Source of the DNA: Verrucomicrobiota bacterium | GTDB taxonomy: Bacteria; Verrucomicrobiota; Verrucomicrobiia; Limisphaerales; J093 | Direction of reading: 5' to 3' | Assembly: GCA_012517065.1 (NCBI GenBank) | Contig: JAAYVR010000015.1 | Coordinates: 11,978 to 75,977 of the forward strand | DNA: 64,000 bases | Part shown: piece after piece, positions 10,928-62,830 of the stretch | How the letters are laid out: each line of letters begins with the position of its first letter | How positions within the stretch are numbered: the stretch's first letter is position 1 | The notes under the pieces: model-generated | What the model saw: the letters and a program-made list of their open reading frames with translations, nothing else | Databases searched by the model: none | Told to the model about the DNA's origin: nothing | Program-made: the position numbers and the translations under genes

Positions 10928-11683
10928 GCCCGCATGTTCCCCAGCCCGACGTAGCCGGAACAAAATGGCCTCCCGGGCACTGCCCCGGCTCCAGCACCCC
11001 CTCGGGCTGTCCGTCACGCCTAGCTGGGAAATATGCCCCGCGACTCCATCGCTCGGAAAAGCACCAGGACCAAACCTCCACCGGACGCAACGCTGCCAGA
11101 GCAACTCCCAATCAAATGTAGCTCTTAAGCCCGAACGCTGGACTCTACTCTAATAGCCGCGGTGCTGGATTCGCCCGACGCACGGAACAACCCACCGCCG
11201 TTACAGTTCCGCGTTTACGCGAAAAACTGAAACCTTTCTGGTCCTGATTCTGGTACCCAGCGCTTTGCCCCTGAGCCAAATGCCGCCTGCGGCGTTCCAA
11301 GCCGACTACGTGTCTGTCCCCATATGGCCTGATTCGCGGTGATCCCAATAGTTTCTCACGCGCTGCCGCGGATGCAATGGGCGTTGGCAGGCGCGAAGCG
11401 TTTGGAGTGCGGCAGCTTGCTGCCGCTTTGTTTCCATGCCCAAACAACGTGTCTGTCCCCATATCGACATCCGATGGGTTCCTCCACAGACATCGGCAAC
11501 ATCGGATTGGAACAAGGGACAATTTGCGGACCACGCCGCAATCAGGGGCCAAAACCCAAATAATGAGCCTGTCCCATATTGATACTTCTCTGGCCCAAGC
11601 GCGGGTTTCCTTGGCCCGGAGATCTCACCGCCTGACCGGCCAAAGACAGCCAAGGCATTCATTGAGGTGAGATTCCCTGGTTA
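10928..11683 (+). mobile_element. Modular MITE/REP-like intergenic repeat, copy R1
   Basis: Starts GCCCGCATG; contains CAGCCCGACGTAGCCGGAAC, two GTGTCTGTCCCCATAT, TTGGAGTGCGGCAGCTTGCTGCCGCTTT and an ATCTCACC/GGTGAGAT pair shared with other copies. Confidence 0.75.
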
Positions 11684-11698
11684 GGCACACTCAAATGG

Positions 11699-12220
11699 TC
11701 ATTCAAGCGAGATGTCCTGACTAAAGTCCGAAAGGCGTTCCCGAAGCGGCTGCAGATCGGGGTCAACCTTCGCCATTTGCAGCACTGTTGATCGCCCCCC
11801 AACCGCCATTGCGCGTTGAAGCAGTCCCCACGCTTCGTCAACATGACCGGATTGCGCCGCGTAACAGGCGAGATTGTAAGGAACAAGAAAAGCCTTGGGA
11901 AACTTCTCAAGCGCAGGGTGCAGGAGCGACCATGCCTTTTCCAGCCCGCCATCTTTCATCCGTCTCGCTGCAAAAGCCCGAACAATCCAGCCATCTACTT
12001 CGTCAGGAAGCAATGCCACAAGCCGCTCTGCGATCCGAAAAGCCGCATCCCAATCGCCCAACTTGGCCCTGATCTCCCACTCCACCCGAAGCACATCGGG
12101 TGAATTCCGGTTGGACGATCGTATCCGATCCAGCTCGCCAAGCGCCGAAACAGCGTCGCCAAGCAACAGCCAGGCCCGGGCTTCTTCGAGAGCTAAGTTA
12201 TCCGGCTCGCTCAACGGCAT
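11699..12220 (-). CDS. Tetratricopeptide-repeat protein
   Basis: Helical repeats ending YNLACYAAQSGHVDEA...DPDLQPL, a common TPR C-terminal module. Confidence 0.8.
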   Translation of the reverse strand: MPLSEPDNLALEEARAWLLLGDAVSALGELDRIRSSNRNSPDVLRVEWEIRAKLGDWDAAFRIAERLVALLPDEVDGWIVRAFAARRMKDGGLEKAWSLLHPALEKFPKAFLVPYNLACYAAQSGHVDEAWGLLQRAMAVGGRSTVLQMAKVDPDLQPLRERLSDFSQDISLE

Positions 12221-13346: not shown

Positions 13347-14666
13347 ATGAACACTGCACTGACAAGAAGACGGTTCCTGAGTCAAACGGTCATCTCAAGC
13401 GCGACACTCGGAGTTGCCCCCTGCTTCCTCCGCGGATTCGGCTCCCTTAACCAGAAGATTAATGTCGGGTTTGTCGGCGTGGCGAATCGTGCTGCTGACA
13501 ATTTGTCGGAAGTCAGCAAGCTAACCGACCTGGTCAATGTGGCCGCCCTCTGCGATGTTGACGACAGATACTTGGCACAGGCACGCGAGAAACATCCGGG
13601 GGCAAAAACATACAACGATTTTAGAAGACTGATCGACCAGAAAGACATTGACGCGGTCGTGGTGAGCACGCCGGATCACACACACGCTGTGGCCACTGCG
13701 GCGGCCATTCGTACAGGACGCCACGTTTACTGCGAAAAGCCGCTCACCAGAACAATCTCCGAATGCCGTAAGATCGAAGAACTCACCAAGAAGTACAAGC
13801 GAATCACACAGCTCGGCACCCAAATCCACGCCGGCGACAATTATCGCCGTGTCGTCGAACTCGTCCAAGCCGGTGCGATCGGTCCCGTCCACGAGGTGCA
13901 CGTGTGGGTCAGCGCCTCCTACGGCGGGATGAACAAGCCGACAGACAAACCGCCCGTTCCGCCCGGATTGCACTGGGATTTGTGGCTCGGGCCAGTTGGC
14001 CCTTCCGATTATCACCCGGATTACGCGCCGTTCAAATGGCGCAATTGGTGGGCGTTCGGCGGCGGTTCCCTAGCAGATTTCGGGTGCCATTTCATGGATT
14101 TGCCGCATTGGGCGCTGGACCTGCGTCATCCGTTGTCCGCTGAACCTCTTGCCGGGCCGCCGGTGCATCCAGATTCAACACCACCGTGGCTCATCGTCAG
14201 ATACGAGTACCCTGCGCGTCCTGCAATTGAAGGCCGGCCACCACAGCCTCCCGTGGTTCTAACATGGTATCACGGCGGAAAACAACCAGCGCTGCTTGAT
14301 GAGGAACAATCCAAGTATTTTCGAAGCGGAGTGATGTTCGTAGGCGAAAAGGGAATGTTGTTGGCCGACTATACGCGCAGGCAATTGTTGCCTGAAAAAG
14401 ATTTCGCCGGTTTTCAACCCCCGCCTCAGTCGATCCCAAAGTCCATCGGACATCACCGCGAGTGGATCGAAGCAATCCGAAATGGCGGCAAAACCACATG
14501 CAATTTTGATTACTCGGGCGCTCTCACGGAGGCAGCATTGCTGGGCAACGTCGCATACAGAGTCGGCCGCAAAATTGTTTGGGACGCCAAAGCACTCCGG
14601 GCAATCGGATGCCAGGAAGCCGACCAGTTCATTCAACACAGTTACCGCAAAGGCTGGAAGCTTTAG
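13347..14666 (+). CDS. Tat-exported Gfo/Idh/MocA family oxidoreductase
   Basis: TRRRFL twin-arginine motif; VSTPDHTH, YCEKP, WDLWLGP, ADFGCHFMD. Confidence 0.92.
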   Translation: MNTALTRRRFLSQTVISSATLGVAPCFLRGFGSLNQKINVGFVGVANRAADNLSEVSKLTDLVNVAALCDVDDRYLAQAREKHPGAKTYNDFRRLIDQKDIDAVVVSTPDHTHAVATAAAIRTGRHVYCEKPLTRTISECRKIEELTKKYKRITQLGTQIHAGDNYRRVVELVQAGAIGPVHEVHVWVSASYGGMNKPTDKPPVPPGLHWDLWLGPVGPSDYHPDYAPFKWRNWWAFGGGSLADFGCHFMDLPHWALDLRHPLSAEPLAGPPVHPDSTPPWLIVRYEYPARPAIEGRPPQPPVVLTWYHGGKQPALLDEEQSKYFRSGVMFVGEKGMLLADYTRRQLLPEKDFAGFQPPPQSIPKSIGHHREWIEAIRNGGKTTCNFDYSGALTEAALLGNVAYRVGRKIVWDAKALRAIGCQEADQFIQHSYRKGWKL

Positions 14667-14880
14667 CCATCACATTCCGCAGCCCGGCGTAACCGGAACC
14701 AAAGCTGCCTGCAAGGCAGTGCCCCGCTCCTGCACCCCCGGTGGCTGTCGGCCACGCCGGGCTGCGAAATATCTGCTACGACTCCGTCGCCGGGAAAAGC
14801 ACCCTGATCCCCCGACCGGACCAGGCACTGCCAGAGCGACTCCCAACCACATGTAACTCTTCCGCCTAAAGGGGGACTCA
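14664..14880 (+). mobile_element. Modular repeat copy R2a, beginning at the upstream TAG stop codon
   Basis: TAGCCATCACATTCCGCAGCCCGGCGTAACCGGAACCAAAG..., colinear with 10928-11145. Confidence 0.7.
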
Positions 14881-14930
14881 AACGGTCGAGGCGGACAACG
14901 CCACTCGGTTGGCAAACCCGCGGCCCGGTT

Positions 14931-15034
14931 CAACGTTGTAAGTTAGACGTTGTACGTTGAAAGTTTTCATAGGTTTATCAGCTTGGCCGTCTTGTTGAGA
15001 ACGTTCAACATACAACGCTCAACGTACAACGTTC
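14931..15034. repeat. Inverted pair of 5-unit heptamer arrays
   Basis: CAACGTT GTAAGTT AGACGTT GTACGTT GAAAGTT ... AACGTTC AACATAC AACGCTC AACGTAC AACGTTC; arms match 28/35 as an inverted repeat (hand count). Confidence 0.75.
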
Positions 15035-15063
15035 AGAGGTATTACTGCTCGATGAATGCTCGT

Positions 15064-15675
15064 TCCAAAGCCGCCTAAAGGCGGGACTCCGACAGCCCCG
15101 GCCGTGACATCGCCCAAAGCGCGCAACAGCCCATCGCCGTTAGAGCTCCCCGTTTACGCGGAAAACTGAAAGCTTTCTGGCCCTGATTTTTGGGACGGCA
15201 TCGCTTTACGCCTGCGCCAAGGGGCGACCCGCGGCCCTCCGACCCAACTACGTGTCTGTCCCCATATGGCCCCATTCGATCTCGCCGCTGATCCTGATGG
15301 TTTTTCACGCGCTGCCGAGGATGCAGCGTGCTTTGGTGGGCGCGGAGCGCTTGGAGTGCGGCAGCTTGCTGCCGCTTTGTATTTATGCGCAAACATCGTG
15401 CCTGGAACCAGATCGGCATGACGCAGAAAACAATGTGTCTGTCCCCATATCTGCATCCGACTGGTTCCTCCGCAGATTTCGGCAACCGCCGATTGGAGCA
15501 CGGGACAATTCTCCCGCCATGCCACGATCCGGAGGCAAGACCCAAACATCGAGCCTGTCACTCTATTTGGGTCCTTGTTCGATGTGCGTGGGTGGCAGGC
15601 AGCCCAGCGGCAGCTCCAAGAATTGAGATTCTCTCGTTTGCGGCGCGGGTTGCCAAGAACCGGAAATCTCACCAG
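15064..15675 (+). mobile_element. Modular repeat copy R2b
   Basis: 15064-15450 is nearly identical to the reverse complement of 29055-29440; also carries AACATCGAGCCTGTCACTCTATT and GAAATCTCACC modules. Confidence 0.8.
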
Positions 15676-15861
15676 AATCAGGGCCGAAAGCGCTGCATAG
15701 CGAAGTGAGGCGCACGGCTCGACCGCGCAACGAGTTCGAACATTGATTAATTCTTGTCTTGAATCCGACCGCAGTTGTTGCGATAAAGCGCGAGTCACCG
15801 ATGGCTTTCGCGTTGTAACAAAGACGGAATCAACTCAACCAACAAGCAAGAGGAGTTCAGA

Positions 15862-28985: not shown

Positions 28986-29054
28986 CCACCTTTTCACAGC
29001 TTGGTTACCCCGGAAAATCTCCCGGGCGTGGCCGACTGCCCGAGTGAGCGCAAG

Positions 29055-29473
29055 GATATGGGGACAGACACATTGTTTTCGGCGTCATGCCGATCTGGTT
29101 CCAGGCACGATGTTTGCGCATAAACACAAAGCGGCAGCAAGCTGCCGCATTCCAAGCGCTCCGCGCCCACCAAAGCACGCTGCATCCTCGGCAGCGCCTG
29201 AAAAACCATCAGGATCAGCGGCGAGATCGAATGACCAGATATGGGGACAGACACGTAGTTGGGTCGGAGTGCCGCGGGTCGCCCCTTGGCGCAGGCGTAA
29301 AGCGATGCCGTACCACAATCTGGACCAGAAAGCTTTCAGTTTTCCGCGTGAACGCGGGACTCTAACGGCGATGGGTTGTTGCGCGCTTTGGGCGATGTCA
29401 CGGCCGGGGCTGTCGGAGTCCTGCCTTTAGGCGGCTTTGGTTCCGGCTATGCCGGGCTGCAAAATATACGGGC
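29055..29473 (-). mobile_element. Modular repeat copy R3
   Basis: Reverse complement of R2b core; ends TTGGTTCCGGCTATGCCGGGCTG...ATATACGGGC. Confidence 0.8.
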
Positions 29474-29506
29474 CAAGAATTCGATGCAGGTCCACCCTCA
29501 GCAAGC

Positions 29507-40609: not shown

Positions 40610-40683
40610 GGGTCGGCGCATATTCCCGGCGCTTAAAGTTCGCGCATTGGGAATGCGATGCAACGCCGACAATCGCGCAGTCT

Positions 40684-45421: not shown

Positions 45422-45489
45422 AGCGCGAATAAAGTGCCAGGCTCGTTGTTGTTTTTTCAGCGCGAATAAAGTGCCAGGCTCGTTGTTGT
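45422..45489. repeat. Perfect 31-bp direct repeat (period 37)
   Basis: AGCGCGAATAAAGTGCCAGGCTCGTTGTTGT at 45422-45452 and 45459-45489; reverse complement of the AACAACGAGCCTG(T/G)CACT module. Confidence 0.85.
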
Positions 45490-45783: not shown

Positions 45784-46251
45784 GTGAAAGCATTTAAGGC
45801 TATCGGCGCCATGTCTCTCAACCGCGTCATAGGACGCGGAGGCCGAATTCCGTGGCACATACCGGAGGAATTCAAGTGGTTCAAGAGAACCACAATGGGG
45901 CATGTGCTGGTCATGGGCAGGCGGACGTTTGAGTCGATAGGACGCCCTCTGCCGGGCCGGGAGACAATAGTCCTGAGCCGAACGGGATTTACACATCCCG
46001 GGGTAAGAACAGTGGCGAGCCTCGATGAAATCGGCCTTGGGAATGATCAGCGCGACATATTCATATGCGGGGGCGCTCAGGTGTACACAGCGGCGCTGCC
46101 GCGCTGCTCAGACCTTTTCCTGACGGTTGTTGAACAGATTGTTGACGGCGACAGTTTCTTCCCGCCCTTCGAGCACTTGTTTGACGCGGGCGAGCTGGTC
46201 TTTGAAGGACCGGGTTTCAAAGTGATGCACTACCTTAGGAGGCAATCCTAG
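45784..46251 (+). CDS. folA: Dihydrofolate reductase
   Basis: AMSLNRVIG..G.IPWHIPEEFKWFK..T.G..LVMGRRTFESIGRPLPGR.TIVLSR...ICGGAQVY...GDSFFP; GTG 45784. Confidence 0.95.
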   Translation: MKAFKAIGAMSLNRVIGRGGRIPWHIPEEFKWFKRTTMGHVLVMGRRTFESIGRPLPGRETIVLSRTGFTHPGVRTVASLDEIGLGNDQRDIFICGGAQVYTAALPRCSDLFLTVVEQIVDGDSFFPPFEHLFDAGELVFEGPGFKVMHYLRRQS

Positions 46252-46387
46252 CCCGCAAATCTCACCGCTTGACAAACCCAAGAGACCCAAAGCTTCATTC
46301 CGGTGAGATTTCCAGGGCCCGCATATTCCTTGGTCGCTTGAAGACACCCGTTTCGCAGACTGCTCAGGGTATGAAATATGCCGGCTA
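46249..46387. mobile_element. Short repeat copy R5 with inverted ends, starting at the folA TAG stop
   Basis: c-TAGCCCGCAAAT...ATATGCCGGCTA-g; right part nearly identical to 40990-41083; internal ATCTCACCG/CGGTGAGAT inverted pair. Confidence 0.8.
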
Positions 46388-46485
46388 GAGCCAATAGTTG
46401 GAGACCCCATCTCAGAACAACCAAACCTCCGGCACGATGACGTCCGAACATCGAGCCTGACACTCTATTCAGGTCAAATTTCAGC

Positions 46486-51349: not shown

Positions 51350-52807
51350 TTATTCTACGAACCGGAGCGAATACAAGTCGGCGTCCCGCATCACAAACCT
51401 GAGCCGCACTTCCTGCCCTGCAAGCGAGCCAACATCCGGTCCCTTTTTCCATGTCACGATTCGGTCAATGTCATCGCCAATCTGTTCCACCGCATCAGCA
51501 AGCCCAAAGCCTTCGAGCGCACGGCCGTTCGCGTCCTGAATCTCGACGCGCACTTCGCCTGCAGCACCGGTAGCAAAATTGATCGACAACTTCTGCCCGG
51601 CGAAAACGAGCGGCCGGGTCACCATCTCGCCACCCGAATACGGGGCGTTCACAGAAACAAACCCGTCGGTGCGCAGTATGTATCGGACCAGCCTGCTGGT
51701 GGGTTGCGCGTAGCTGGCCTGCTTGTAGATGGACATTTCAGCGGGACCGGTTGGAACGACGCCTAACGCTGCCATCCCGGCGCGTGAAACCCAGTTGCCG
51801 AGGTCCGAGCCAGGACGAATAAAAGACTCCAAAAACAAACGCACAAATCTGTCGCCGCCGCGCGTCGCCATGAACACAGTGTCCGCGGTGTCGCCAGCGT
51901 ACCCTGGTTTCACACCGAGCGTTCTTGCCTGTTCGTCCGTAAGCACTTTCCGCCCCGGCACAAATCGCATCGGGGTCGCCACGTAAATGTGTGGCGCACG
52001 AAAGTACGGATGGGTTTGGCTCGTATAAAGATGCTCGGGCGGAGTGTCACCGAATTTCATTTCAACCGGCTCCGACCATGCCACGAAATCGGGCGAAGTA
52101 GCGCGGCTGATCGTTCGGTACCCGGCAAACCCGCCGCCGGTCCATGTTCGGAAGTATGCCACATAGCATTGTTCGGATTGCGACCAGAAAGCCACGTTTT
52201 GCGAATCAAACGCGCCTTTGGTCAACAGTGGCTTGGCCCCGAACCGGCGCCAGCGGATTCCATCCTCTGAAACAAATCCGCATAGCCCCGATTCAGCCGT
52301 GCCCGCAAGCGCCTTGTACCGCTCCGAATGCTGCACGCCAGGCCGCGTATCAAGAAACGGCGCGAAATTATGTGAAAAGGGCGGCTGATGCGCGAGCACG
52401 ACGTTGTTTCTCTTTGAACCGTTGACTTCGAACAACCCAAGACACGGCTTTTCCCAGTGAACGCCATCCGAACTCTCCGCCAAACAGGTCACTTCCGCAC
52501 TCGAACCGTCTTTTCCCGCTGTCGGCAGCCCCCTATAATACAGTCGATACCGCCCCTGATCCATGATCACCGTCGGATAACCGCAAAACGGCCCTTCCCA
52601 TGGCAGATCGAATCGGATAGCCACTCCTGCTTCGACCGGTTGATGCAGCCGCAACGCCGCGCCTGCCATCCGCTCGATCAACAGATCATCAACGAACAGT
52701 TCCCGCCGTGAACCGATCGCAATCGCAGCCTCAGCATCGGTCCAGTTGGCCATACCGGCCAAACAGATCGGCAGAACCACACAACCGAGTATTGTTTGCG
52801 TTTTCAA
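51350..52807 (-). CDS. Secreted beta-propeller glycoside-hydrolase-like protein (GH32/GH43-like clan)
   Basis: IGSRRELFVDD, YRLYYRG, AESSDGVHWEKP, FDSQNVAFW, LRTDGFVS, ADLYSLRF. Confidence 0.75.
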   Translation of the reverse strand: MKTQTILGCVVLPICLAGMANWTDAEAAIAIGSRRELFVDDLLIERMAGAALRLHQPVEAGVAIRFDLPWEGPFCGYPTVIMDQGRYRLYYRGLPTAGKDGSSAEVTCLAESSDGVHWEKPCLGLFEVNGSKRNNVVLAHQPPFSHNFAPFLDTRPGVQHSERYKALAGTAESGLCGFVSEDGIRWRRFGAKPLLTKGAFDSQNVAFWSQSEQCYVAYFRTWTGGGFAGYRTISRATSPDFVAWSEPVEMKFGDTPPEHLYTSQTHPYFRAPHIYVATPMRFVPGRKVLTDEQARTLGVKPGYAGDTADTVFMATRGGDRFVRLFLESFIRPGSDLGNWVSRAGMAALGVVPTGPAEMSIYKQASYAQPTSRLVRYILRTDGFVSVNAPYSGGEMVTRPLVFAGQKLSINFATGAAGEVRVEIQDANGRALEGFGLADAVEQIGDDIDRIVTWKKGPDVGSLAGQEVRLRFVMRDADLYSLRFVE

Positions 52808-52825
52808 GGTTAACAGTCGTGTCTC

Positions 52826-53686
52826 TCACTCTGGTTTCTGGTCAGCCCTCGCGCGAACTTCCTCGACCATTTTCTCCCAATAGGCGCTCAGAAACGGCGG
52901 GTTTCGCATGCTCTCGAGCGCATAAAAACGATCCGCGCGCTCGATGTCCAGCACCGCAGTAATCATTTCTTCCTGATACCAACCAGCCTCGGCCAACGGC
53001 AACCCGTTCACATCCCGTATGAATGATTGGCCGCTCGATGTCTGCTTGCCGTCAGGAGATTGACCCACAGTATTGGCCACGCAATGGAATATCCGCGAGT
53101 TCGGCCCAGCCGGTTGCTGTGCCCGACCGGAAACCCTCTTCCACACAACAGCCTCGATCTCGTCAGAACTGCAAGATGGATGGAAAAGTATCTTCGCCCC
53201 GGCCATCGCAGGCAGCCGGTACAACTCCGGATGCCGCCCGTCCCGGCAAATAGCAAGGGTGCACATCACACCATCGATCTCAAACAACGCAAGCTTGTTC
53301 CCGCCACGACAGTACTTGCGCTCGTCTCGCCCTGCCATGTGCACTTTTGCGTATTCGTAAGCTATTGTGCCCTTCGGCGAAACCACATGCGCGAGATTCA
53401 AACAACGGTCGGATGTCTTCTTGAGCGTGCCCACAATGACCCAAATGTCGTTTGCGGCCGCTGCCTTGCAAACCGCCTCGAGCGCACGGTCAATTGATTC
53501 AGGAGGAAGTCTTGTAACCTCAGGAAAATAATATCCCGTCAGGTTTGCCTCGGGAAAAAGGACCACTCGACTGCCCTCCTCAGCCGCCAGCCTGATGTAG
53601 CGAATCGTTTGATCCAGATTGCGATCGAGTGACCTTGCCCAGTGAAGCTGGACACACGAAACACAGAGTGTCTTGGTCGATTTCAT
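52826..53686 (-). CDS. Carbon-nitrogen hydrolase (nitrilase superfamily)
   Basis: Catalytic triad context VLFPE / YAKVH / AICRD..HPE. Confidence 0.9.
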   Translation of the reverse strand: MKSTKTLCVSCVQLHWARSLDRNLDQTIRYIRLAAEEGSRVVLFPEANLTGYYFPEVTRLPPESIDRALEAVCKAAAANDIWVIVGTLKKTSDRCLNLAHVVSPKGTIAYEYAKVHMAGRDERKYCRGGNKLALFEIDGVMCTLAICRDGRHPELYRLPAMAGAKILFHPSCSSDEIEAVVWKRVSGRAQQPAGPNSRIFHCVANTVGQSPDGKQTSSGQSFIRDVNGLPLAEAGWYQEEMITAVLDIERADRFYALESMRNPPFLSAYWEKMVEEVRARADQKPE

Positions 53687-53910
53687 TCGTTGCCACGCCT
53701 TTTAAGCAGCACAGAACCCGATGTCAAATATCACAAACCGGCCGCGACGCGCCACTGCAAGAAATCGTGAATTGTTCGAGTTCGTCAGTTCCGCCAACAG
53801 ATAACTCTCACCGCACGTGTTCCTTGTTTTCATCCTGTTCCTCCGTTTGGTCGTTCAACTCTGATGTCGTACAACGCTTTGCCTGCCAATTGGAGAAGAA
53901 ACCCGTCAGC

Positions 53911-54290
53911 CAGAATATCAAGCCTGGCACTCTATTGCGTCATGAAACGAAATATCGAGCCTGGCACTCTATTCAAGCCAGTGATGCAGTCCCAACGGCA
54001 CGGCCTTTGGGATTGAGTCGAAATAAGGTGACAGGCTCGTTGTTTGGGTGTTCTCCCGGATCGTGGCATGGCGAGCAGATTGTCCCTTGTTCCAATCGGC
54101 GGTTGCCGAAGTCCGTGGAGGAACCCCTCTCATACCAACATGGGGACAGACACGTTGTTCCTCGCATGCCAATATGCGGAGACACACATTGTTTCAGGGG
54201 GCGCAGGAGCCGGGTCACTGCCCGCCGGACAGGTTTGGTTCCGGCTACGCCGGACTGCGGAATATGCGGGCGCCCGGACATCTCACCGGA
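53911..54290. mobile_element. Modular repeat copy R6
   Basis: Two tandem AATATC(A/G)AGCCTGGCACTCTATT, an inverted AATAAGGTGACAGGCTCGTTGTT, GGGGACAGACACGTT, TTGGTTCCGGCTACGCCGG...ATATGCGGGC. Confidence 0.75.
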
Positions 54291-54400
54291 CTCGAGGCCT
54301 GGGTGTTTCTTGGGAATCGGCCGGTAAGGCTTCCGGGACAGCAGGCTCTGTCCTATGGAGCGTCATGCATGTGAGTTGCCCACTAATCGTGGCTGCAAAG

Positions 54401-54484
54401 TTGACTGGAATCAGAAACTGAATATGGTATGCCGCAGCACGGCAATGCTGAGTGACAAGAGGAATTAAGCAAACACAAGGAGGT
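54401..54484 (+). promoter_or_regulatory. Putative promoter and strong Shine-Dalgarno of the 54490 gene
   Basis: TTGACT-N16-TATGGT (54401-54428); AAGGAGGT at 54477-54484, 5 nt before ATG. Confidence 0.5.
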
Positions 54485-54489
54485 GCAAG

Positions 54490-55674
54490 ATGGCATTCAG
54501 AATTGAAGACAGTGTGGTGCGCGGTGAGATTGACAACCGCGTCAAGGGAATCGTCAGGGGAAAAATCTGGCTGGAAGGTAGGCCGGACCCGATGCTTCTC
54601 GAACTCAAGGGCAATCCGTGGCCAGACCTCGCAGGATGCCTGCTGACATTTGTTAACCCAAACAAACGCATTCCGTACCATTCTTTGGATGCGCTTGGTC
54701 AGGTGCAGCGCGGTGCCGTTGGTGATATGACCGCTTCCAGGAAAGTGCGTGTTTTGGAAGTTCCGGTCGCCGAAGCATACATGATGGCCAAGCGCGGCGA
54801 AAAACCGCCCGAACATATGGCCAATAGTCTATACCTTGAATGGTTCAGTGAAACAAATGGGCGGGTCGTCATCGAAAGCAGCGATTACGAACTCAACGTT
54901 TCACAGCCGGAATGGCGAATGACACCCGAGGACGAAGTCGAACGCGCCAAACAGGCTGCCACAGCTATGCAAGAGTTCATGGCCAGGCTCACAGATGCAG
55001 TCGAGCAGCACAAACGGAGACGAAAGCCCGATGACGAGGACTGGGATCAGTTCGATTACGAGAGCTTCATGAAAGAGTGTGACGCCCGTTCCGAAAAGTA
55101 TGCCGAGTTGCTGGATGAATACGGTCTTTCAGACGAAGCCCAAGATATAATCGACAAGGAAATGGGCTGGGACACCGAGCCTGGAGAAGAGCTGTTCGAT
55201 GAGATTACCGACACCTTTGAGGAGGCATTGAACGAACCTGAACCTGAACCCGACCCCACCCGGCAAGGCATCGACTGGATTCGCACCAAAGATGGCCACA
55301 TTCGCCACCCGCTTCAGCACCGTTGTCACCAAAGCGCAGCCAAATTCTCCAACAAGGTCAAGCGGCTGGGACTCGACAGAACCAAGGACAAGGACCTTGA
55401 CCAGTTCCTGTTCGAGTTCCAAATGACTGCTGTGAAACTCGCAGGCGCACTCAATACCGTCGCTCAAGCCCGTTACACGCCCCCACCCGCATTCACTGTG
55501 GCGTATCTCAAGCGTGCGTTGGACCACCTGCACAAGTCACAGGCTGGCCTCGAGGGCCTCGCAAAGCGGAAGGTCCTTGCGGACAAACTGATTTCCAGTG
55601 CACGCAAGGAGTTGTTTGCGATTCGAGAAAGCGTCCTCAAATTAATGAACGACTTCAGGCGAAAGCAGCGTTAG
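54490..55674 (+). CDS. Hypothetical cytoplasmic protein (beta-rich N-terminus, acidic linker, helical-bundle C-terminus)
   Basis: 394-aa ORF with strong RBS; VRGEIDNR, GNPWPDLAGC, LYLEWFS..NGRVVIE; no recognised catalytic motif. Confidence 0.8.
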   Translation: MAFRIEDSVVRGEIDNRVKGIVRGKIWLEGRPDPMLLELKGNPWPDLAGCLLTFVNPNKRIPYHSLDALGQVQRGAVGDMTASRKVRVLEVPVAEAYMMAKRGEKPPEHMANSLYLEWFSETNGRVVIESSDYELNVSQPEWRMTPEDEVERAKQAATAMQEFMARLTDAVEQHKRRRKPDDEDWDQFDYESFMKECDARSEKYAELLDEYGLSDEAQDIIDKEMGWDTEPGEELFDEITDTFEEALNEPEPEPDPTRQGIDWIRTKDGHIRHPLQHRCHQSAAKFSNKVKRLGLDRTKDKDLDQFLFEFQMTAVKLAGALNTVAQARYTPPPAFTVAYLKRALDHLHKSQAGLEGLAKRKVLADKLISSARKELFAIRESVLKLMNDFRRKQR

Positions 55675-55776
55675 CGAAGTTACGACGAGTTACGACTGAG
55701 GCCGATACGGGATGCGGTGCCAAAGTGCTCAACGTGCTCTCGCCGATCCCGATGTCTGGCCTGCTCCCGCCAACCA

Positions 55777-55970
55777 GGAAATCTCACCGGCCACACTCTC
55801 GGATTCACCCGCTCCTTCATTTAAGTGAGATTTCCGCGGCGCGCATATTCCTTGAGCTCTTGAAGGCACACGTTTCGCAGACGGCTGAGAGCATACCGTC
55901 ATATTTCAGAGTCGTTCATATTCACATAGATTGTCAGGCTGTGAGTTTGGTTCCGGCTACGCCGGGCTGG
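55777..55970. repeat. Diverged repeat copy R7a
   Basis: GAAATCTCACC...GTGAGATTTCC, GCATATTCCTTG...CGTTTCGCAGAC and TTGGTTCCGGCTACGCCGGGCTG modules. Confidence 0.65.
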
Positions 55971-56098
55971 ATTGTCATATTGTAAAGCCATTCTAATTGG
56001 CGAAGATTCTCACGCCGCGAGTTTGCTCAGTTTCTCTGTATCTGCTTCTCTGGCCGTAAGTAGGGCGGTCACAACAGGACCGCCTTCTGGGGTGAGTC

Positions 56099-56739
56099 GT
56101 ATAAGGTGACAGGCACGTTGTTTGGGTTTTGACCCCGATTGCGGCGTGGTCCGCGAATTGTCCCTTGTTCAAATCGGCGGCTGCCGAAGTGTGCGGAGGA
56201 ACCCCTCGGATGCCAATATGGGGACAGACACGTTGTTTGCGCATCCCCAGCCGGTGAATGTTCGGGCGCCGCATTTGCGGGATCGAAACGGGTCGTAGGG
56301 TTGGTCGTAACGTTGATGCGGCCGAGGACGGCCGCGCTCCCGACTGTCGGTGTTTCCTCCAACGCGTCGGCAGGAGCGCGGCGATTCTTCGCCGCACCCA
56401 ACCGGTGTATGTTCGGTGGCCCGATTTGCGGGATCGAAACGGGTCGTATGACCGGTCATCGGGCTGATGGGGAACATGGGGACAGACACGTTGTTTGGGC
56501 GTAAAGACAAAGCGGCAGCAAGCTGCCGCACTCCAAGCGCTTCGCGCCTGCCAACGCCCACTGCATCCGCGGCAGTGCGTGAGAAACCATCGAGATCAGC
56601 GCGCTGTTCCTTGCGACGAAGTCGCAGGGCATGTTTCCCAGCCCGGCGTGGCTGAAAGTCCGGGGGCGCAACAGCCGGGGGCGTTGCTCGTCAGGCGACT
56701 TTGGTTCCGGCTACGCCGGGCTGGGAGCTATGCGGGCTA
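56099..56739 (-). mobile_element. Modular repeat copy R7b, starting at the GH51 TAG stop
   Basis: Ends TATGCGGGCTA-g; 56476-56739 is colinear with the reverse complement of R4; two GGGGACAGACACGTT; internal direct repeat at 56273 and 56424. Confidence 0.8.
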
Positions 56740-59130
56740 GAACTGCACTCTTGCGCGTAAGACTGTCACCGAGTTACCCGGGGAAGTCCACCGGAAGTCT
56801 GGCCCACTGGCATCAAACTGCGTCGCGCGTGGAGAAACCTTCTTCGGTTCTTCAAGCGAGTTTTCGTCGTTTGGACTGGCCGATGCTAGCACAACAGCGT
56901 GAACCGGCGCGGTGATTTTCTTGACGCCCGCCAGGTTGATTGAAGACACGATGTCTTTGTCGGAAACATTGACGAGCTTGATGATAACCTGGTCCGATGA
57001 TGTTTCGCGTGTAGCGCTGGCGTAGAGGGGCTTGATTGTTGGATAGCGCACATCATGTACGAGCTTGCCGTCGAGGTAACACTTGATGCTTTGGCCTTTG
57101 ACTTCCACCTTTACGTCGTACCATCTGCCCATCTCGATACTGCCGGGCACGTGACGTCCGATCTGGCTCTTTCCTCCGTTGGTGCAGAGTTCAATGGCGT
57201 GTTCACGATTCCCCCAACCGCCAAGGTTCCACCACGTCCAGTTGTTTTCGTCGCGGACATGAAACATCACAAGGAACCCTTCGGCGCCACCCAGCTTTCG
57301 CGCCTTCAGCGTGTAGGTGTAATCGTCCCAATCGGTGCTGCCCGAATGAGCCTGGACGTTTTCCGCGTCACTGTTTTGGCGGTAAGCCCCATCGACGACT
57401 GTCCAGTTGCCACTTACTGCGTGCCAACCTGCATCGCCCTTTGCGAAGTCGTGCTCGTAAAGCACCTTCCCATCTTTCACGACTCGAATGTCTTTGAATT
57501 CGGCTCGAGTGAGCCATGTGCCAAGCCCGATCCGACCCCGGCGAGGCGCGGGTTCAATCGCCGGGGCATCCATTTGCAGCGGCAGGGTAACGTCACCACG
57601 ATTGAGGCTGAACATCTGCTGGACGTAATAGCTCGGAAGCCCGTAAGCGCGTGAGCTGTCGAAGTTGATGAGGTCGGGGTTCCAGCGTTTGTGGTTGATG
57701 TTAACGAAAAGGGGCGCGTAGCTCGCCATCCAGACAATGTCCGAGTTGCGCTCGAGGCCCGTCATGAATGCTGCTTCGCCTATGGCGGCGCGGAGGTTGC
57801 CCTGACCACACCCTGATGTCACTGCGTATTCGCCAACGAACACTTTCGGGCCGTTCCGATCGTAAGCGTCATACCTGTCCGCTTGCTGCATGAAAAACTC
57901 AGGGTTGCTGTAGTAATGCTCATCGATGATATCCGGAGGCGGATTTGTCGGGTAACCGCCCCAGACATTGGCTATCAATTGAATCTCAGGGTATCTCGAC
58001 TTGATCGCGCGGTAGAACATGCCCCAGCGCACATTATAGTCAGGACCGCCGTTTTCATTGCCAATTTCGATGTATTTTAATCTGAACGGCGCGGGATGAC
58101 CGTTCATGGCGCGCAGACCGCCCCAGACAGTGTTTGTCGGGCCATTGGCATACTCGATTGCGTCCAAGGCGTCCTGCACCCACTGACTCATTCTGTCCAG
58201 CGGCACGACTTCCCTGTGTGACATTCCGACATTGATGCAGAAAACAGGTTCAGCGCCGAGGTCTTCGCTCAACTGAAGGTGCTCGTGAAAGCCGAGACCG
58301 TGCGTGGCCCAATACTGCCAAATGTTCCAGAGCGGTTCCCGTGTTGCGATGTCGCCCACCGTCTTCTTCCACTGATACATGTGGGCAAGGTCGTCGCCTT
58401 CAACCCAGCAACCACCGGGAAAACGCATGAACGACGGTTTGAGATCGTCCAGCAGTTCGCACAGGTCGGGGCGCAACCCGTGGTTCTTCCACGTTCTCTC
58501 GGGCATCAGGGACACCATGTCCAGCCAGAGCGTTCCGGTGCCCTCAGCGATGATCTTTAGCTTGCCCTTCGGATGGCCGGATTCGGCCTTCAATTCGGCG
58601 CTGAACCATTTCCACTGCGACGTGATCCCGCTGAACGTGGCGCGGGCGGTTTCTTTGCCGTTGGCATCGATCAGCACGTGAACAGGGCCGGAAAAACCGT
58701 CTGCTCTGGCAGCAAACCGTAGATTGTACCTTTCACCCGCCACAATGTTCATTCCCCAATAACCCTCGTTTACAATGCAAGCCCGGCCTTCGAGCCGAAT
58801 CCGCAGGCTTTTCCGGTTGAAAGGATTCAAGGGATGCCGGGTGTCGATGCTTGCTTCGCCTGTAACGTCTTGTTCTCGAACCACGGTCCAGTGCTCCGGT
58901 TGCATCGAGTCTTCAAAAGACCTGTTTCGGACAAGTTCAGGATAGATACCGCCGTCAGCGGAATGATTGATGTCTTCAAAGAAAATACCCCACAGCATGG
59001 GGCTCACACTGTGACCGGGCTCGTTGGCTCGGACTGTGATGCGTGCCAGTTGTGCTTTCACGTGAAGACAAGCCTGCAACAGAATCGAAGCGAGCAATGC
59101 TCGAACTGCGTGTTTGTATCTCGGTTGCAT
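56737..59130 (-). CDS. Alpha-L-arabinofuranosidase (GH51) with inserted jelly-roll domain
   Basis: GIFFEDINHSADGGIYPE, RFPGGC, IEIGNEN, DEHYY, FVGEYA, ERNSDIV.MASYAP; ~170-aa insert (IGLGTW...GRWYDVKVEV...YLDGK). Confidence 0.93.
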   Translation of the reverse strand: MQPRYKHAVRALLASILLQACLHVKAQLARITVRANEPGHSVSPMLWGIFFEDINHSADGGIYPELVRNRSFEDSMQPEHWTVVREQDVTGEASIDTRHPLNPFNRKSLRIRLEGRACIVNEGYWGMNIVAGERYNLRFAARADGFSGPVHVLIDANGKETARATFSGITSQWKWFSAELKAESGHPKGKLKIIAEGTGTLWLDMVSLMPERTWKNHGLRPDLCELLDDLKPSFMRFPGGCWVEGDDLAHMYQWKKTVGDIATREPLWNIWQYWATHGLGFHEHLQLSEDLGAEPVFCINVGMSHREVVPLDRMSQWVQDALDAIEYANGPTNTVWGGLRAMNGHPAPFRLKYIEIGNENGGPDYNVRWGMFYRAIKSRYPEIQLIANVWGGYPTNPPPDIIDEHYYSNPEFFMQQADRYDAYDRNGPKVFVGEYAVTSGCGQGNLRAAIGEAAFMTGLERNSDIVWMASYAPLFVNINHKRWNPDLINFDSSRAYGLPSYYVQQMFSLNRGDVTLPLQMDAPAIEPAPRRGRIGLGTWLTRAEFKDIRVVKDGKVLYEHDFAKGDAGWHAVSGNWTVVDGAYRQNSDAENVQAHSGSTDWDDYTYTLKARKLGGAEGFLVMFHVRDENNWTWWNLGGWGNREHAIELCTNGGKSQIGRHVPGSIEMGRWYDVKVEVKGQSIKCYLDGKLVHDVRYPTIKPLYASATRETSSDQVIIKLVNVSDKDIVSSINLAGVKKITAPVHAVVLASASPNDENSLEEPKKVSPRATQFDASGPDFRWTSPGNSVTVLRARVQF

Positions 59131-59351
59131 GCCTCACTCATAAACGCTTGATGCGTTTGAGGGCAAGTAAGGACTTGAGCCGGAACTCCCACTGGCTCAT
59201 TGGACATCGCGAGTGCCGCACGGCGGCGCCTTGAGTCCCGGAAGCCCGCGCCAGCCCGTAGCTTGGAAGCCTTCGCCAAGCAACAGTTTTTCTTTGGCAC
59301 ACCAGCGGCGGTTGCATATGATTGCGGCTTTGCAAGCAGCCGAAAGCGCAC

Positions 59352-61847
59352 ATGAAAGTCACGCTCAACTGGCTTCGACAGTACGTCGATTTTGATTTTA
59401 CGCCGGATCAACTGGCCGAGCGAATCACCATGCTCGGCATGGAAGTCGAAAACGTCCAAAAACTCGGCGGAGAATTCGAAGGCATAGTGGTCGCCCAAGT
59501 TCTATCGATCGACAAGCACCCAAATGCCGACAAACTCACTGTGTGCCGGGTCGCTGACGGAAAAGGCGAGAGACAGATTGTTTGTGGCGCCAGCAATTTC
59601 AAGGTCGGCGACAAAGTGCCTCTGATTCAGCCCGGATACTCCCTGCCAGCGCAGCAAGGCGAAAAACCGTTCACAATCAAGGTAGGCAAAATCCGCGGCG
59701 TGGAATCATACGGCATGATGTGTTCGCCAAAGGAGCTTGGGATATCCGAGGACGCGGCAGGTTTGATGATTTTGCCCGAGACCGCGAGGGTCGGGCAGCC
59801 GTTTGGCGAGTTTCTTGGTCGCACCGAAAGCGATGTTGTGTTTGATCTTGAAATCACGCCAAACCGGCCCGACCTGAACAGTGTTATTGGCATCGCAAGG
59901 GAAATCGCCGCAATCACCGGAAACCCGCTCCGTATCCCGGACGTTAGCCTCGAGGAAGACCAGTCCGCGCCCGCGGCGTCAGGTCTGGTGGCAGTCCGGA
60001 TCGAAGACGCCGAGCTTTGCCCGCGTTACACGGCGCGGGTTGTGCTCGGGGTGAAGGTGGGCCCCAGCCCCGACTGGTTGCGGGCGAGGCTCGAGGCCGT
60101 TGGCTTGCGCAGCATTAGCAACGTGGTCGATGTGACCAATTACGTCATGCTCGAGTGCGGACAGCCACTGCACGCATTCGATTACCATCTGATTGCTAAG
60201 AACGCCGCCGGCGTCCCAACGATTGTCGTGCGCAGAGCCGCTGCCGGTGAACGGTTCGTCACCCTTGACGAGCAGGAGCATGTCCTCACCGACGAAATGC
60301 TGCTCATTGCGGATGAACAAAAAGGCATTGCGCTGGCAGGTGTAATGGGGGGGCGCAACTCGGAGATTAACGACCAAACCGTGGACGTGCTGATCGAGAG
60401 CGCTTATTTCAAGCCCACCAATATCCGCCGCACTTCGAAGCGGCTGGGGCTGCGCACGGACGCGTCGTATCGATTTGAGCGCGGCGCTGACCTTGGCAAC
60501 ACCGATTGGGCCAGCCGCCGTTGCGCCCAACTCATCCTTCAAACAGCCGGCGGCCGGCTCGCCCGCGGCGTGGTCGATGCTTGTCCCAAACCGGCAACAC
60601 CGGTCCGCATCACCCTTCGACATCACAAAGTCAACGACTTGCTCGGTCTGGAACTTAAACCGGAGGAGATCGAGTATTACCTGTCTCAGTTGGGCTTGAA
60701 GATCGAAGATCACAAACCGCGGCCGGTCGGCTCTCCCGCATCTGGGCCGCAGCCGGTCACGTTCCTGATCCCCAGTTTCAGAGTCGATCTGAAACGCGAA
60801 ACGGATTTGATCGAAGAAGTCGGCCGCCTCCATGGCGTCGAGAAAATCCCGGCGACCCAGCCCCGGGGCGCGCGTGGTGCCAACGAGTATGACCCGGTTC
60901 ATGACAATTTGGCCGAAGCACGCCGGATACTGGCAGGGCTTGGCCTTAACGAAGCGCAGGGCCAAACCCTTATCAGCGAGGATGCGGCGCGCCTTGTCTG
61001 CAGTGATTTTGTGCCGCTCGAGAACCCGTTGAGCGCAGATATGAACGTCTTGCGACCGAGCCTGTTGCCCGGCTTGCTCGATTCTTTGCGACACAACGTG
61101 AGTCGGAAAACCGAAGACGTCGCTTTGTTCGAGATCGGTCGCGTGTTCACAAGACCGGCGTCCCATGGTGAAAGTGCCGCCAAAGACAATAACGGGCCAG
61201 CGGTGTTGGAACGCCGCCGGGTTGCAATGGCTTTGACCGGGCGCAGGAGCAGCCCATTCTGGACCGGTGAAAACCGGGATGCGCTTTATGATTTGTTCGA
61301 TCTGAAAGGAATTGTCGAAGAGTTTCTTGACCGGTACGGGGTCCGCGGCGTCACCTACGTAAGCCGCGCCAACAGAACAGCCCTGTTCGTCGAATCTGCA
61401 AGAGTTCACCTTGGCCGAATCGAGCTGGGGGAGATGGGCCGCGTACTGCCACCACTGGCGGAACGGTACGATATCCGGCAACCGGTCCTGCTCGCCGAGC
61501 TTGACCTGGACGAACTGCTTCGGCTTCGCAATACAACCCGCGTTTTCAAGCCGTTGCCGCTGTTCCCCAGCGTTCGCCGGGACATCGCGATGATCGTGCC
61601 CGAAAGCGTTACTCATGACGCGGTTCTTGCGGCTGTTAAACAAGCCAAACCGCCGTTTCTGGAAAGCGTCGAACTGTTCGACGTGTTCCGCGGCAAGCAC
61701 GTGCCGCCCGGCCACAAGAGCATGGCGTACGCATTCACCTACCGGAGTCCGGACAGAACCCTCACTGATGCAGAGGTCAACGCCGCACATCAGCAGGTCG
61801 TGAACCGATTCAAAGAGGCTCTCAAAGCCACGGTGCGCGAAGCGTGA
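59352..61847 (+). CDS. pheT: Phenylalanine--tRNA ligase beta subunit
   Basis: MKVTLNWL, HPNADKL, IRGVESYGMMCS, EITPNRPD, VVDVTNYV, RFERG, LRPSLLPGLL, C-terminal FDX-ACB domain. Confidence 0.98.
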   Translation: MKVTLNWLRQYVDFDFTPDQLAERITMLGMEVENVQKLGGEFEGIVVAQVLSIDKHPNADKLTVCRVADGKGERQIVCGASNFKVGDKVPLIQPGYSLPAQQGEKPFTIKVGKIRGVESYGMMCSPKELGISEDAAGLMILPETARVGQPFGEFLGRTESDVVFDLEITPNRPDLNSVIGIAREIAAITGNPLRIPDVSLEEDQSAPAASGLVAVRIEDAELCPRYTARVVLGVKVGPSPDWLRARLEAVGLRSISNVVDVTNYVMLECGQPLHAFDYHLIAKNAAGVPTIVVRRAAAGERFVTLDEQEHVLTDEMLLIADEQKGIALAGVMGGRNSEINDQTVDVLIESAYFKPTNIRRTSKRLGLRTDASYRFERGADLGNTDWASRRCAQLILQTAGGRLARGVVDACPKPATPVRITLRHHKVNDLLGLELKPEEIEYYLSQLGLKIEDHKPRPVGSPASGPQPVTFLIPSFRVDLKRETDLIEEVGRLHGVEKIPATQPRGARGANEYDPVHDNLAEARRILAGLGLNEAQGQTLISEDAARLVCSDFVPLENPLSADMNVLRPSLLPGLLDSLRHNVSRKTEDVALFEIGRVFTRPASHGESAAKDNNGPAVLERRRVAMALTGRRSSPFWTGENRDALYDLFDLKGIVEEFLDRYGVRGVTYVSRANRTALFVESARVHLGRIELGEMGRVLPPLAERYDIRQPVLLAELDLDELLRLRNTTRVFKPLPLFPSVRRDIAMIVPESVTHDAVLAAVKQAKPPFLESVELFDVFRGKHVPPGHKSMAYAFTYRSPDRTLTDAEVNAAHQQVVNRFKEALKATVREA

Positions 61848-61916
61848 CTGACCCTGTTCGGCCCTTTCGGCGCAGGGGCGGTTATGCGGTGTTGTCAACC
61901 CGCGGCAGTGCACCCA

Positions 61917-62830
61917 GCCCGCATATTTGGCCAGCCCCCGGCCTGGCCAGAACCAAAGTTGCCTGACGGCCAGTGACCTGCGGCCTGCGCCCGTTGATGA
62001 GCACTGTCGCCCGCGCCGGGCTGCGAAATATCCCCTGCGACTCCGTCGCCAAAAAGAGCGCGCTGATCCCGATGGTTTCTCACGCGCCGCCGCGGATGCA
62101 GCGGGCGTTGGCAGGCGCGAAGCGCTTGGAGTGCGGCAGCTTGCTGCCGCTTTGTTCTTATGTCCAACAACGTGTCTGTCCCCATATCTTCACATCAACC
62201 TTTTCCGCCTGAACCCGGGACTCTAATAGCCGCGGTGCTGGCTTCGCCCGACGCGCGGTACAACCCATCGCCGCTAGAGTTCCGCGTTCACGCGGAAAAC
62301 TGAAAGCTTTCTGGTCCTGATTGTGGTACCCCAGCGCTTTGCCCCACCGCCAAGGGACGGCCCGCGGCGCTCCAAGCCAACTACGTGTCTGTCCCCGTAT
62401 CACGTTTCGGGAGCGCGGCCGTCCTCGGCTGCATCAACCGGGCAGCCGATCTAAAGACCAGTTTCGATCCACTAGAAGGGGGAGCCCGGACGTTGACTGG
62501 TTGGGCAACAACGTGTCTGTCCCCATAGGGCTTCATTCGATCTCGCCGCTGGTCCCGATGGCTTCTAACGCGCTGCCGCGGATGCATTGGGCGTTGCTAG
62601 GCGCGAAGCGCTTGGAGTGCGGCAGCTTGCTGCCGCTTTGTTTCCATGCCGAAGCAACGTGCCTAGAACAAGATCGGCATGACGTCACAAATAACGTGTC
62701 TGTCCCCATATCGGCATCCGAGGGGTACCTGCACAGACTTCGGCAACCGCCGATTGGAACAAGGAACAGTCTGCGGGCCACGCCGCAGTCCAGGGACAAA
62801 ACCCGAACAACGAGCCTGTCACTCTATTGC
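61917..62830 (+). mobile_element. Longest modular repeat copy R8
   Basis: Starts GCCCGCATAT; four GTGTCTGTCCCC, two TTGGAGTGCGGCAGCTTGCTGCCGCTTT, GGGAGCGCGGCCGTCCTCGGCTGC; ends AACAACGAGCCTGTCACTCTATT. Confidence 0.8.

Follow-up and report, generated by a model that had tools for sequence, protein, structure and literature searches.

The DNA examined here raises the question of what its intergenic repeats are and what moves them. The window, i.e. the whole stretch of 64,000 nt that was analysed (GenBank assembly GCA_012517065.1, contig JAAYVR010000015.1, positions 11,978 to 75,977; C226:11978-75977 in our numbering), belongs to genome G000, a 5.26-Mb Verrucomicrobiota metagenome-assembled genome (MAG) from wastewater or sludge (5,258,718 bases in 298 contigs, 57% G+C). 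An earlier note, made from the letters of the window alone, had described repeats composed of seven modules, a to g. We consider it fairly probable that these repeats are lineage-specific, non-coding mobile DNA driven by HuH Y1 transposases which are encoded elsewhere in the genome; this estimate includes the stacking mechanism proposed below. Two layers can be distinguished. Module g is a canonical REPIN, i.e. an inverted pair of repetitive extragenic palindromic (REP) hairpins, and its single-copy REP-associated tyrosine transposase (RAYT) gene is located inside a REPIN array. The motif of modules b and d carries the GGGGWSAS signature known from the ends of TIRYT or subclass 2.1 systems. 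It appears to belong to a RAYT-class transposase of 322 amino acids (aa), which seems to behave like an insertion sequence (IS) with at least 47 copies. The apparent link of the junction motif to this high-copy transposase and to GGGGWSAS is what the present analysis adds.

The window repeats are spread over the genome

The window was compared with its own genome by blastn and stretches with at least five genome copies were kept. This yielded 5195 nt of intergenic repeat DNA (~8% of the window) in 11 stretches with copy numbers of up to ~470, all of which fall between long open reading frames (ORFs). Extent and position agreed with the ~5 kb and the loci that had been reported. A repeat scan of the window gave 56 direct-repeat families, and the large ones were all at the same loci. 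Module b occurs 15 times in the window at ≤3 mismatches; the shuffle expectation is 0.01 and 0/100 shuffles reached 15. In the genome, at ≤2 mismatches, we counted 177 copies of module a, 614 of b, 369 of c, 94 of d, 314 of f and 331 of g. A restriction of the copies to the window, which the earlier note had named as a reason to abandon its view, was not observed: with 94 to 614 genome copies per module the repeats clearly are not confined to it. 14-mers with at least 10 copies span 298,069 bases, i.e. 5.7% of the genome.

According to Pfam, the 37 window ORFs are ordinary chromosomal genes, among them leuS, pheT, DHFR, arginine decarboxylase, a type II/IV secretion ATPase and a secretin, exopolysaccharide (EPS) export genes and FG-GAP proteins. 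As had been stated before, a transposase domain was absent from the 37 ORFs scanned. tRNAs were not found in the window.

A non-palindromic motif delimits polar arrays

Modules b and d had been listed separately. A single position weight matrix (PWM) captured both, and they are variants of one 22-nt motif, AACAACGTGYCTGTCMCYATAT, which is non-palindromic and has no internal dyad. The iterated PWM has the consensus CCCAAACAACGTGYCTGTCMCYATAT; at ≥14 bits it matched the genome 1440 times (1436 without overlaps) and the reversed PWM 0 times. Neighbouring motifs point the same way: among pairs within 600 nt, 743/764 were co-oriented and 21 opposite. They group into 672 arrays. In 247 of these there is one motif; the other 425 are multi-motif arrays, of which only 21 are of mixed orientation. 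Spacing is quantised at 37, 100-120, 140-160 and 250-300 nt. Sixteen solo motifs are located in unique DNA.

The d variant was also considered as a sigma-54 promoter (TGGCAC-N5-TGC). This reading was rejected: between GG and GC one base is missing from the spacing, and the GG itself is absent from the main variant. Perfect inverted pairs of b motifs ~10 nt apart (GGGACAGACACG..N10..CGTGTCTGTCCC) were noticed at two places, C274:34410 and C274:50897 (minus strand). This arrangement resembles terminal inverted repeats (TIRs) and is rare in this genome.

The units between the motifs follow a grammar

The 708 internal stretches between co-oriented motifs clustered into few families of fixed length:

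U0, 116 nt, 170 copies, ends in the d variant
U1, 146 nt, 134 copies, carries the module-c hairpin
U2, 37 nt, 122 copies
U3, 126 nt, 55 copies
U4, 37 nt, 52 copies
U5, 263 nt, 39 copies, carries the module-g inverted hairpin pair

Each unit ends in a b motif, as expected from the earlier statement that module b marks the junctions, and the unit ends are asymmetric. The order of the units is neither free nor fixed and can be written as {U1,U2,U5}* -> U0 -> optional U4. U1 is followed by U0 46 times, by U1 30 times, by U2 56 times and by U5 27 times. After U0 we found U4 43 times, other units 7 times, the array end 132 times, and U1, U2 or U5 in 0/182 instances. U3 combines solely with U3. Of the 'shuffled palindromic modules' in the earlier description, the shuffling thus applies to the middle units U1, U2 and U5, which occur in many combinations, whereas the motif itself is not a palindrome and the overall order obeys a polar grammar.

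Polarity with fixed terminal units would also result if the arrays had been copied from one or a few long composites, with module a as their fixed start and U0/d as their fixed end, and were then diversified by unequal recombination and gene conversion at the motif. The motif would then be a microhomology hotspot and the units would be immobile individually. Consistent with this, a three-unit block of 387 nt is present twice: the near-identity of 15064-15450 and 29055-29440 which had been pointed out was confirmed at 97% mean column identity, with the copies on opposite strands. The 16 solo motifs with their unique flanks might be recombination scars. On the other hand, middle units in many orders and numbers, as exemplified by the successors of U1, are not what copies of a few composites should look like, and additional evidence on this point comes from the transposase genes below.

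In the duplicated block the five bases right after the ...CCCCATAT junction are wholly different (GGCCC at 15267-15272, CTGGT at 29234-29239). Similarly, the first 4-6 bases of U1 vary among genome copies and a constant CAT comes next.

Are the units selected RNAs or regulatory sites?

Modules c and g are strong hairpins, and the U0 consensus folds into a long one (-37 kcal/mol). Arrays are mildly enriched in convergent and divergent spacers (convergent: 83/301 classified arrays compared with 456/2415 spacers), in a test which used crude ORF calls and in which 308/651 arrays were unclassifiable at contig edges. Both properties would suit units which selection maintains as functional structured RNAs or as regulatory sites (e.g. 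terminators, promoters or small RNAs). Yet RNAalifold returned no consensus structure for U0 or U3, and for U1 and U5 only the known hairpins. Covariation in U0 and U3 was essentially absent: ~165 U0 copies had at most 3 double changes per pair and differed almost solely by one-sided changes. Array orientation was not biased relative to the direction of flanking genes (64 same, 82 opposite, p 0.16). An Rfam scan of the window at E ≤1 yielded only mir-6301 and sR45, chance-level matches far below the gathering scores, and the distribution of the repeats is lineage-specific (see below). The lack of an Rfam family, of covariation and of a gene-direction bias, together with the weak link to skew described below, argues for selfish DNA, and selection for an RNA or regulatory function seems to us highly improbable.

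Three kinds of Y1 transposases, each beside its own module

The earlier note had proposed to look elsewhere in the genome for Y1 HuH (RAYT) genes flanked by the modules. Such genes are present. In the genome, 8 matches to the Pfam Y1_Tnp profile were obtained; they fall into three kinds, and each kind adjoins a module of its own. The first is a canonical RAYT of 241 aa (C169:6940-7662; 84 bits on the NCBIfam REP-associated tyrosine transposase NF047646, cut-off 80). Its gene is located amid tandem 150-bp module-g units, at least four upstream and at least three downstream (6201-6830 and 7700-8140). Each unit is an inverted pair, GGAGC plus a hairpin followed ~75 nt further on by a hairpin plus GCTCC. 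The genome has 526 GGAGCGCGGC sites of module g, and its three stem variants differ on both arms. A RAYT gene inside a module-g array constitutes a canonical REPIN-RAYT system, and this explains module g.

The second kind is an IS200-type TnpA of 150 aa (C124:4592-5044; 71 bits on NF033573, cut-off 55). In the region C124:4480-5110 it is flanked in inverted orientation by hairpins of the ATACCAGC-TGGGGCGAAGCCCCA type; these hairpin families have ~90 copies each and are not among modules a to g. Module f pairs are located further out. For modules a, e and f, which are further hairpin repeats, a corresponding enzyme was not found in this search of the Y1 family.

The remaining Y1_Tnp matches are pieces of one gene cut by contig ends; its full protein (P0002, from a database search) has 322 aa. 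By tblastn the N-terminus was present at ~27 contig ends and the C-terminus at ~34, and the fragments are 93-100% identical at the protein level. A DNA search located 47 starts of the gene, a lower bound for its copy number, and each has a b-type motif at -134 to -140. Downstream, b motifs in the same orientation are located at ~+290 and ~+405 after the stop in 18/20 aligned copies. With motifs at fixed sites on both sides, the gene is one more unit in the head-to-tail scheme. Such a fixed distance to at least 47 transposase genes speaks against a motif that is merely a recombination hotspot within composite elements. No transposase was found among the 37 window ORFs scanned, but the contig of the window itself starts inside a copy (C226:2-163, residues 269-322), 11.8 kb upstream of window position 1; two b-type motifs come next, at C226:430 and C226:556. 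The 322-aa element is a main reason for the fragmented assembly of this genome.

Many transposase copies have in common a segment of ~110 nt beyond their last downstream b motif (e.g. C226:580-700). It reads as an ORF end (..GLIKPDGS.RRLRLHL..KADIEVA.VS*) and is either another unit family or a gene remnant.

The 322-aa protein is of the RAYT class

The 322-aa protein scores 43.7 bits on Pfam Y1_Tnp (cut-off 23). In an alignment of 24 sequences H60, H62, Y169, L172 and N173 of the HuH and Y---NP motifs are invariant (consensus NHFH ... YIDLNPVR). A search of PDB sequences gave nothing below E 0.3. The AlphaFold (AF2) model, with a pLDDT of 81.6, has as its best structural match in the PDB the E. 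coli RAYT with its REP hairpin (4er8_A, E 1.2e-5, TMt 0.77), which ranks ahead of the ISDra2 and IS608 TnpA structures. C-terminal helices are modelled at 242-286 with low to moderate confidence, and Pfam has no helix-turn-helix (HTH) match there. HuH plus Y---NP and a RAYT-like fold place the protein in the RAYT class. It is not a class 1 IS200/IS605 enzyme: it has Y---NP instead of Y---Q, U0 and U3 lack a consensus hairpin and the association with skew is weak.

RAYT-like genes flanked by inverted repeats other than REPs have been termed TIRYTs, and many of these repeats share GGGGWSAS (Di Nocera et al. 2013, PMC3733652, on TIRYT/TIRtron systems). TIRYTs equal the TnpA(REP) subclass 2.1 of Quentin et al. 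(2018, PMC6006769) and RAYT Group 1 of Bertels et al. (2017, bioRxiv 10.1101/119735), as is given in PMC6006769. In the portions of the three papers that bear on these genes they are described as low-copy and host-like, with 1.3-1.8 genes per replicon and 6.3% duplicates for Group 1 (10.1101/119735); the same portions give no mechanism of cleavage or transposition.

The 322-aa protein is TIRYT-like in several respects. It is a long RAYT-class Y1 protein, its gene is flanked at a conserved distance by a motif of the GGGGWSAS type, not by a REP hairpin, and copies of this motif are dispersed in the genome and often clustered. The commonest b variant on the strand of the gene, ATATGGGGACAGACAC, contains GGGGACAG; the latter, which is how b reads on its other strand, fits GGGGWSAS at 8/8 positions. 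Judged from these sequences, b is better read as the transposase's conserved end motif than as a mere hotspot of recombination. Differences are evident as well. Published TIRYT genes are low-copy, so that near-identical duplicates would not be expected, and their TIR families are called 'moderately abundant' in the portions of the papers cited, compared with at least 47 near-identical genes and 1436 motifs here. In this genome defined cargo units are present between the motifs.

Relatives of the transposase and distribution of the motif

The core of b has 995 copies in this genome and 131 in G002, its sister species. Counts did not exceed background (≤6) in the genus's third species, in 30 other genomes of the family and in 16 more from the order. 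In other Verrucomicrobiota, the region 40-150 nt upstream of homologues of the 322-aa protein (37-58% identity) contains a b-like motif (..GAGCCTGTCACC.. or ..GAACCTGTCACTT..) of the same orientation in 5/13 loci from named MAGs and in 4/5 loci from family relatives. In 3/13 homologous loci (L017, L021, L022) an inverted copy is present downstream. Two homologue copies in G024 share exactly 1080 bp, from ~25 nt outside the motif to 11 nt past the stop. This indicated that motif and gene have moved together over long evolutionary distances. That the motif was kept beside such distant homologues is not accounted for by recombination alone, and for this reason, in addition to the varied order of middle units and the fixed distance to the gene, we regard diversified composite elements as an unlikely source of the arrays. 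In the genomes of these homologues b-like motifs are rare (23, 6, 17, 5 and 2, compared with 2, 5, 0, 2 and 1 in controls).

Homologues are multi-copy in some other genera; in G007, from another genus, 81 matches to the 322-aa protein were found. Six of these loci (L059-L064) are 84-88% identical over ~1160 bp, which coincides with the coding region, and have unrelated flanks, each with a TTGACA-type box upstream. From these sequences the G007 copies look more like a gene family than like an IS with ends.

A group II intron marks the junction

A group II intron is present in ~20 copies: twenty matches to its domain V/VI were found in the genome, mostly at contig ends (outside the window, e.g. 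C12:5011-5085, C17:12740-12814 and the ends of C111, C116 and C125). The intron 3' end reads ...CTACCCGGAT, and in at least 11 of the 15 copies read the start of U0 follows directly. At 17 contig ends ...GTCTGTCCCCATAT is followed by one common sequence, CGCGTCATGAAAAGCCC..., which we take to be the intron 5' end. The boundary there reads ...CCCCATAT|CGCGTCATGAAAAGCCC, i.e. it is exactly the border of motif and unit. The intron thus independently marks ...ATAT| as the junction.

An intron at precisely this site could mean that the motif is mainly a landing or attachment site for other elements or a host protein, comparable to dRS3 in the Neisseria intergenic mosaic elements (NIMEs), and that the Y1 gene is just one of those that land there. 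dRS3 is a dyad-symmetric 20-mer; b is not a dyad. Furthermore, one of the two sister species and every other genome of the family that was searched have the motif at background, which makes a host function unlikely. Homologous transposases in distant genomes carry the motif without any arrays. We consider a mere landing site improbable. The transposase end motif accounts for b better, and the mechanism which follows is built on it.

A possible mechanism of array growth

The transposase would recognise the motif on one strand and join new units directly beside an existing motif, after ...ATAT. As a result, arrays would grow in a single orientation. The units of 37, 116, 126, 146 and 263 nt each end in the motif, and some hold further hairpin modules, such as c and g, as cargo. 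Unequal recombination between direct motif copies would expand, contract and reshuffle the arrays and leave solo motifs behind. We infer the stacking from the polarity, the discrete unit lengths, the exact junction and the insertion habit of IS200/IS605 elements. These insert next to a short sequence that resembles their own end, as established for IS608 and ISDra2; such a habit would yield head-to-tail stacks. Recombination at b, as proposed in the earlier note, surely contributes too, to judge from the block duplication and the solo motifs; as the main meaning of b it gives way to that of a transposase end.

RAYT-class transposases are generally regarded as domesticated and single-copy. Possibly, though this we put forward tentatively, the TIRYT-like enzyme of this lineage is autonomous and highly proliferative and builds polar 'cassette stacks' behind its own 22-nt end motif, with units that in part carry the REPINs of other transposases. 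If true, arrays in bacterial intergenic DNA would here grow by a directional, HuH-mediated mode that has not been described before. The lineage offers a natural case of a TIRYT-type enzyme with at least 47 gene copies and ~1400 cognate motifs in fixed orientation. The 22-nt motif, the discrete units and the exact ...ATAT junction are defined substrates with which to probe how this enzyme class cuts and joins DNA. In addition, the genome is an example of nested mobile DNA, with several Y1 systems and a group II intron inside one another that occupy 5-7% of its sequence. This explains why the MAGs of the genus are so fragmented, as their contigs end in such elements.

A number of observations weigh against the transposase-driven explanation preferred here. 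On the RAYT equivalog NF047646 the 322-aa protein reaches 43.5 bits, below the cut-off of 80, and Pfam at E ≤1 has no match to a C-terminal HTH domain (Bac_DnaA_C, HTH_23, HTH_28). The gene-proximal motif variant AGGGACAG fits GGGGWSAS at 7/8 positions and the d variant AGTGACAG does not fit it. Motifs beside the gene, like those of the arrays, are direct repeats (head-to-tail), whereas TIRYTs have inverted ones, and a complete element of the 322-aa transposase is not assembled anywhere in the genome. Array orientation is related to local GC skew weakly at best (Mann-Whitney p 0.008, Fisher p 0.07), and a strong replication-strand bias, as is typical of IS200/IS605, was not apparent. The 387-nt block was duplicated as a whole, which implies that some of the spread is by blocks instead of single units. 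Module c has 369 copies here, 42 in G002 and 85 in G023, a member of another genus of the family; 15 of the 85 are exact, and G023 has neither an expansion of b nor a homologue of the 322-aa protein. Cargo hairpins and junction motif therefore have separate histories and were spread or kept independently. Two Y1 genes were found in G023, without a convincing association with module c.

Nor was an insertion event, an empty site or an excision product seen in the spacers of G002 or in public contigs. The G002 spacers orthologous to those of arrays 1 and 2 (listed below) are rearranged beyond alignment, with flanking genes 92% identical, and differ in content: one holds a solo d-type motif, the other an inverted a module at its far end. 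In the spacer of array 2 the first ~15 nt are common, then content and orientation differ. At the remaining arrays examined the G002 contigs break, and G001 is only 74% identical. Among public contigs from 4 runs of 4 wastewater or sludge studies, searched with 52800-63800, none bridges an array. They stop at the arrays, where depth is 100-400x that of the flanks; the joints listed for them, whose sides of 21-43 nt fall within repeats, were left aside.

Comparison with other repeat systems

Module g resembles the REPIN-RAYT systems of Pseudomonas and E. coli: two inverted REP hairpins with a conserved flanking pentanucleotide, hundreds of copies, and a single RAYT gene above the NCBIfam cut-off with module g on both sides. 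It differs in its tag, GGAGC as opposed to GTAG, and in its occurrence as 150-bp tandem units and as cargo within b-terminated units.

Like bacterial interspersed mosaic elements (BIMEs) and NIMEs, the arrays are intergenic and combine repeats of several classes, in which a short repeat forms the junctions of variable modules, and this junction repeat is a landing site of another mobile element as well, here the group II intron. In E. coli BIMEs the REP orientation alternates, whereas 743/764 neighbours are co-oriented here. Hence the REP/BIME mosaic of the earlier note is right in that this is selfish DNA of the REP/RAYT type, and genome-wide, but it is not BIME-like. Compared with NIMEs, composed of dRS3 and RS, the missing dyad of b and a transposase linked to the junction repeat are different; for the CGTC repeat family, to which dRS3 is assigned, the cited part of PMC3733652 reports no dedicated transposase.

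A Y1 HuH enzyme, asymmetric ends, a multi-copy gene and gene-less derivatives are shared with IS200/IS605 elements and palindrome-associated transposable elements (PATEs). Class 2 Y---NP in place of Y---Q, no conserved subterminal hairpin beside b and no clear replication-strand bias set the system apart. It is best filed as a hyper-expanded, directional variant of the REP/RAYT-TIRYT systems with nested REPINs and an intron.

The repeat loci of the window

The 11 high-copy stretches found by blastn are 10921-11687, 14654-15676, 29054-29477, 33370-33423, 34043-34084, 40676-41089, 45426-45487, 46242-46392, 53968-54314, 55765-56747 and 61910-62837. Arrays in the window open with an a module preceded by GCCCGCATAT-like sequence and often close with e-type hairpins or with an 84-nt hairpin element that has GCCCGCATAT...ATATGCGGGC ends. 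The loci are composed as follows:

10921-11687, plus strand: array 1, an a-type module (GCCCGCAT..CCGACGTAGCCGGAAC), an f-type unit ending in b (11304-11325), a U1 unit with the module-c hairpin ending in b (11443-11464), a U0-like unit ending in a weak d-like motif (~11560-11583), and an e-type inverted pair (11620-11680); convergent neighbours are a Wzz/tyrosine-kinase-like gene (8615-10780, plus) and a TPR gene (11699-12220, minus)
14654-15676, plus strand: array 2, an a module, module F19, the AACGTTG tandem/palindrome block, an f unit, U1, U2, U0 and an e-type tail; b motifs at 15246-15267, 15392-15413, 15429-15450 and 15545-15566
29054-29477, minus strand: array 3, a copy of the array 2 block of f unit, U1 and U2 on the minus strand, its far end occupied by an a module; b motifs at 29056-29077, 29093-29114 and 29239-29260
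33370-33423, no strand assigned: isolated e-type fragment CATTCCGATGAGATTTCCGGG (repeat family D14, up to 60 genome copies)
40676-41089, plus strand: array 4, an a module, F19 and U1 (module c), with b motifs at 40930-40951 and 40967-40988; after these, an e half and the 84-nt hairpin element
45426-45487, minus strand: U4-type doublet (D17) of two d-type motifs, 37 nt apart
46242-46468, plus strand: an e half and the GCCCGCATAT hairpin element (46242-46392; repeat family D9, 92% to 40982-41087), then a d-type motif (46447-46468)
53914-54314, no strand assigned: mixed locus, one of the rare neighbourhoods of opposite orientation, with d-type motifs on the plus strand (53914-53935, 53951-53972) and a minus-strand array (motifs 54023-54044, 54138-54159, 54172-54193; a module 54231-54258)
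55765-56747, minus strand: array that begins with an a module (56697-56724); b/d motifs at 56474-56495, 56216-56237 and 56101-56122, two ~150-nt module-g REPIN-type units (56246-56321, 56397-56472), another a module (55943-55970) and, at 55777-55870, an e-type inverted pair
61910-62837, plus strand: the longest array, an a module, F19, then five head-to-tail units ending in b, and unique DNA thereafter; by motif coordinates U1/c 62166-62187, f unit 62379-62400, g unit 62507-62528, U1/c and U2 62653-62674 and 62690-62711, U0 with a d motif 62806-62827; convergent neighbours are pheT (59322-61847, plus) and an ORF (62819-63796, minus)

A further fragment that had been listed at 51263 is a decayed e-type GGAATCTCACC...GGTGA pair only; it exists, with fewer than five genome copies.

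The AACGTTG/TACGTTG block at 14934-15031 is a palindromic repeat whose family has ~125 seed copies and accompanies module f. It produced the mir-6301 match of the Rfam scan, which is spurious. Finally, a 46-nt 'repeat family' (D3) at 233-6047 is coding. It represents repeats of the FG-GAP/VCBS type (..DxDGDGxxD..) in two large FG-GAP genes and as such is unrelated to the intergenic repeats.

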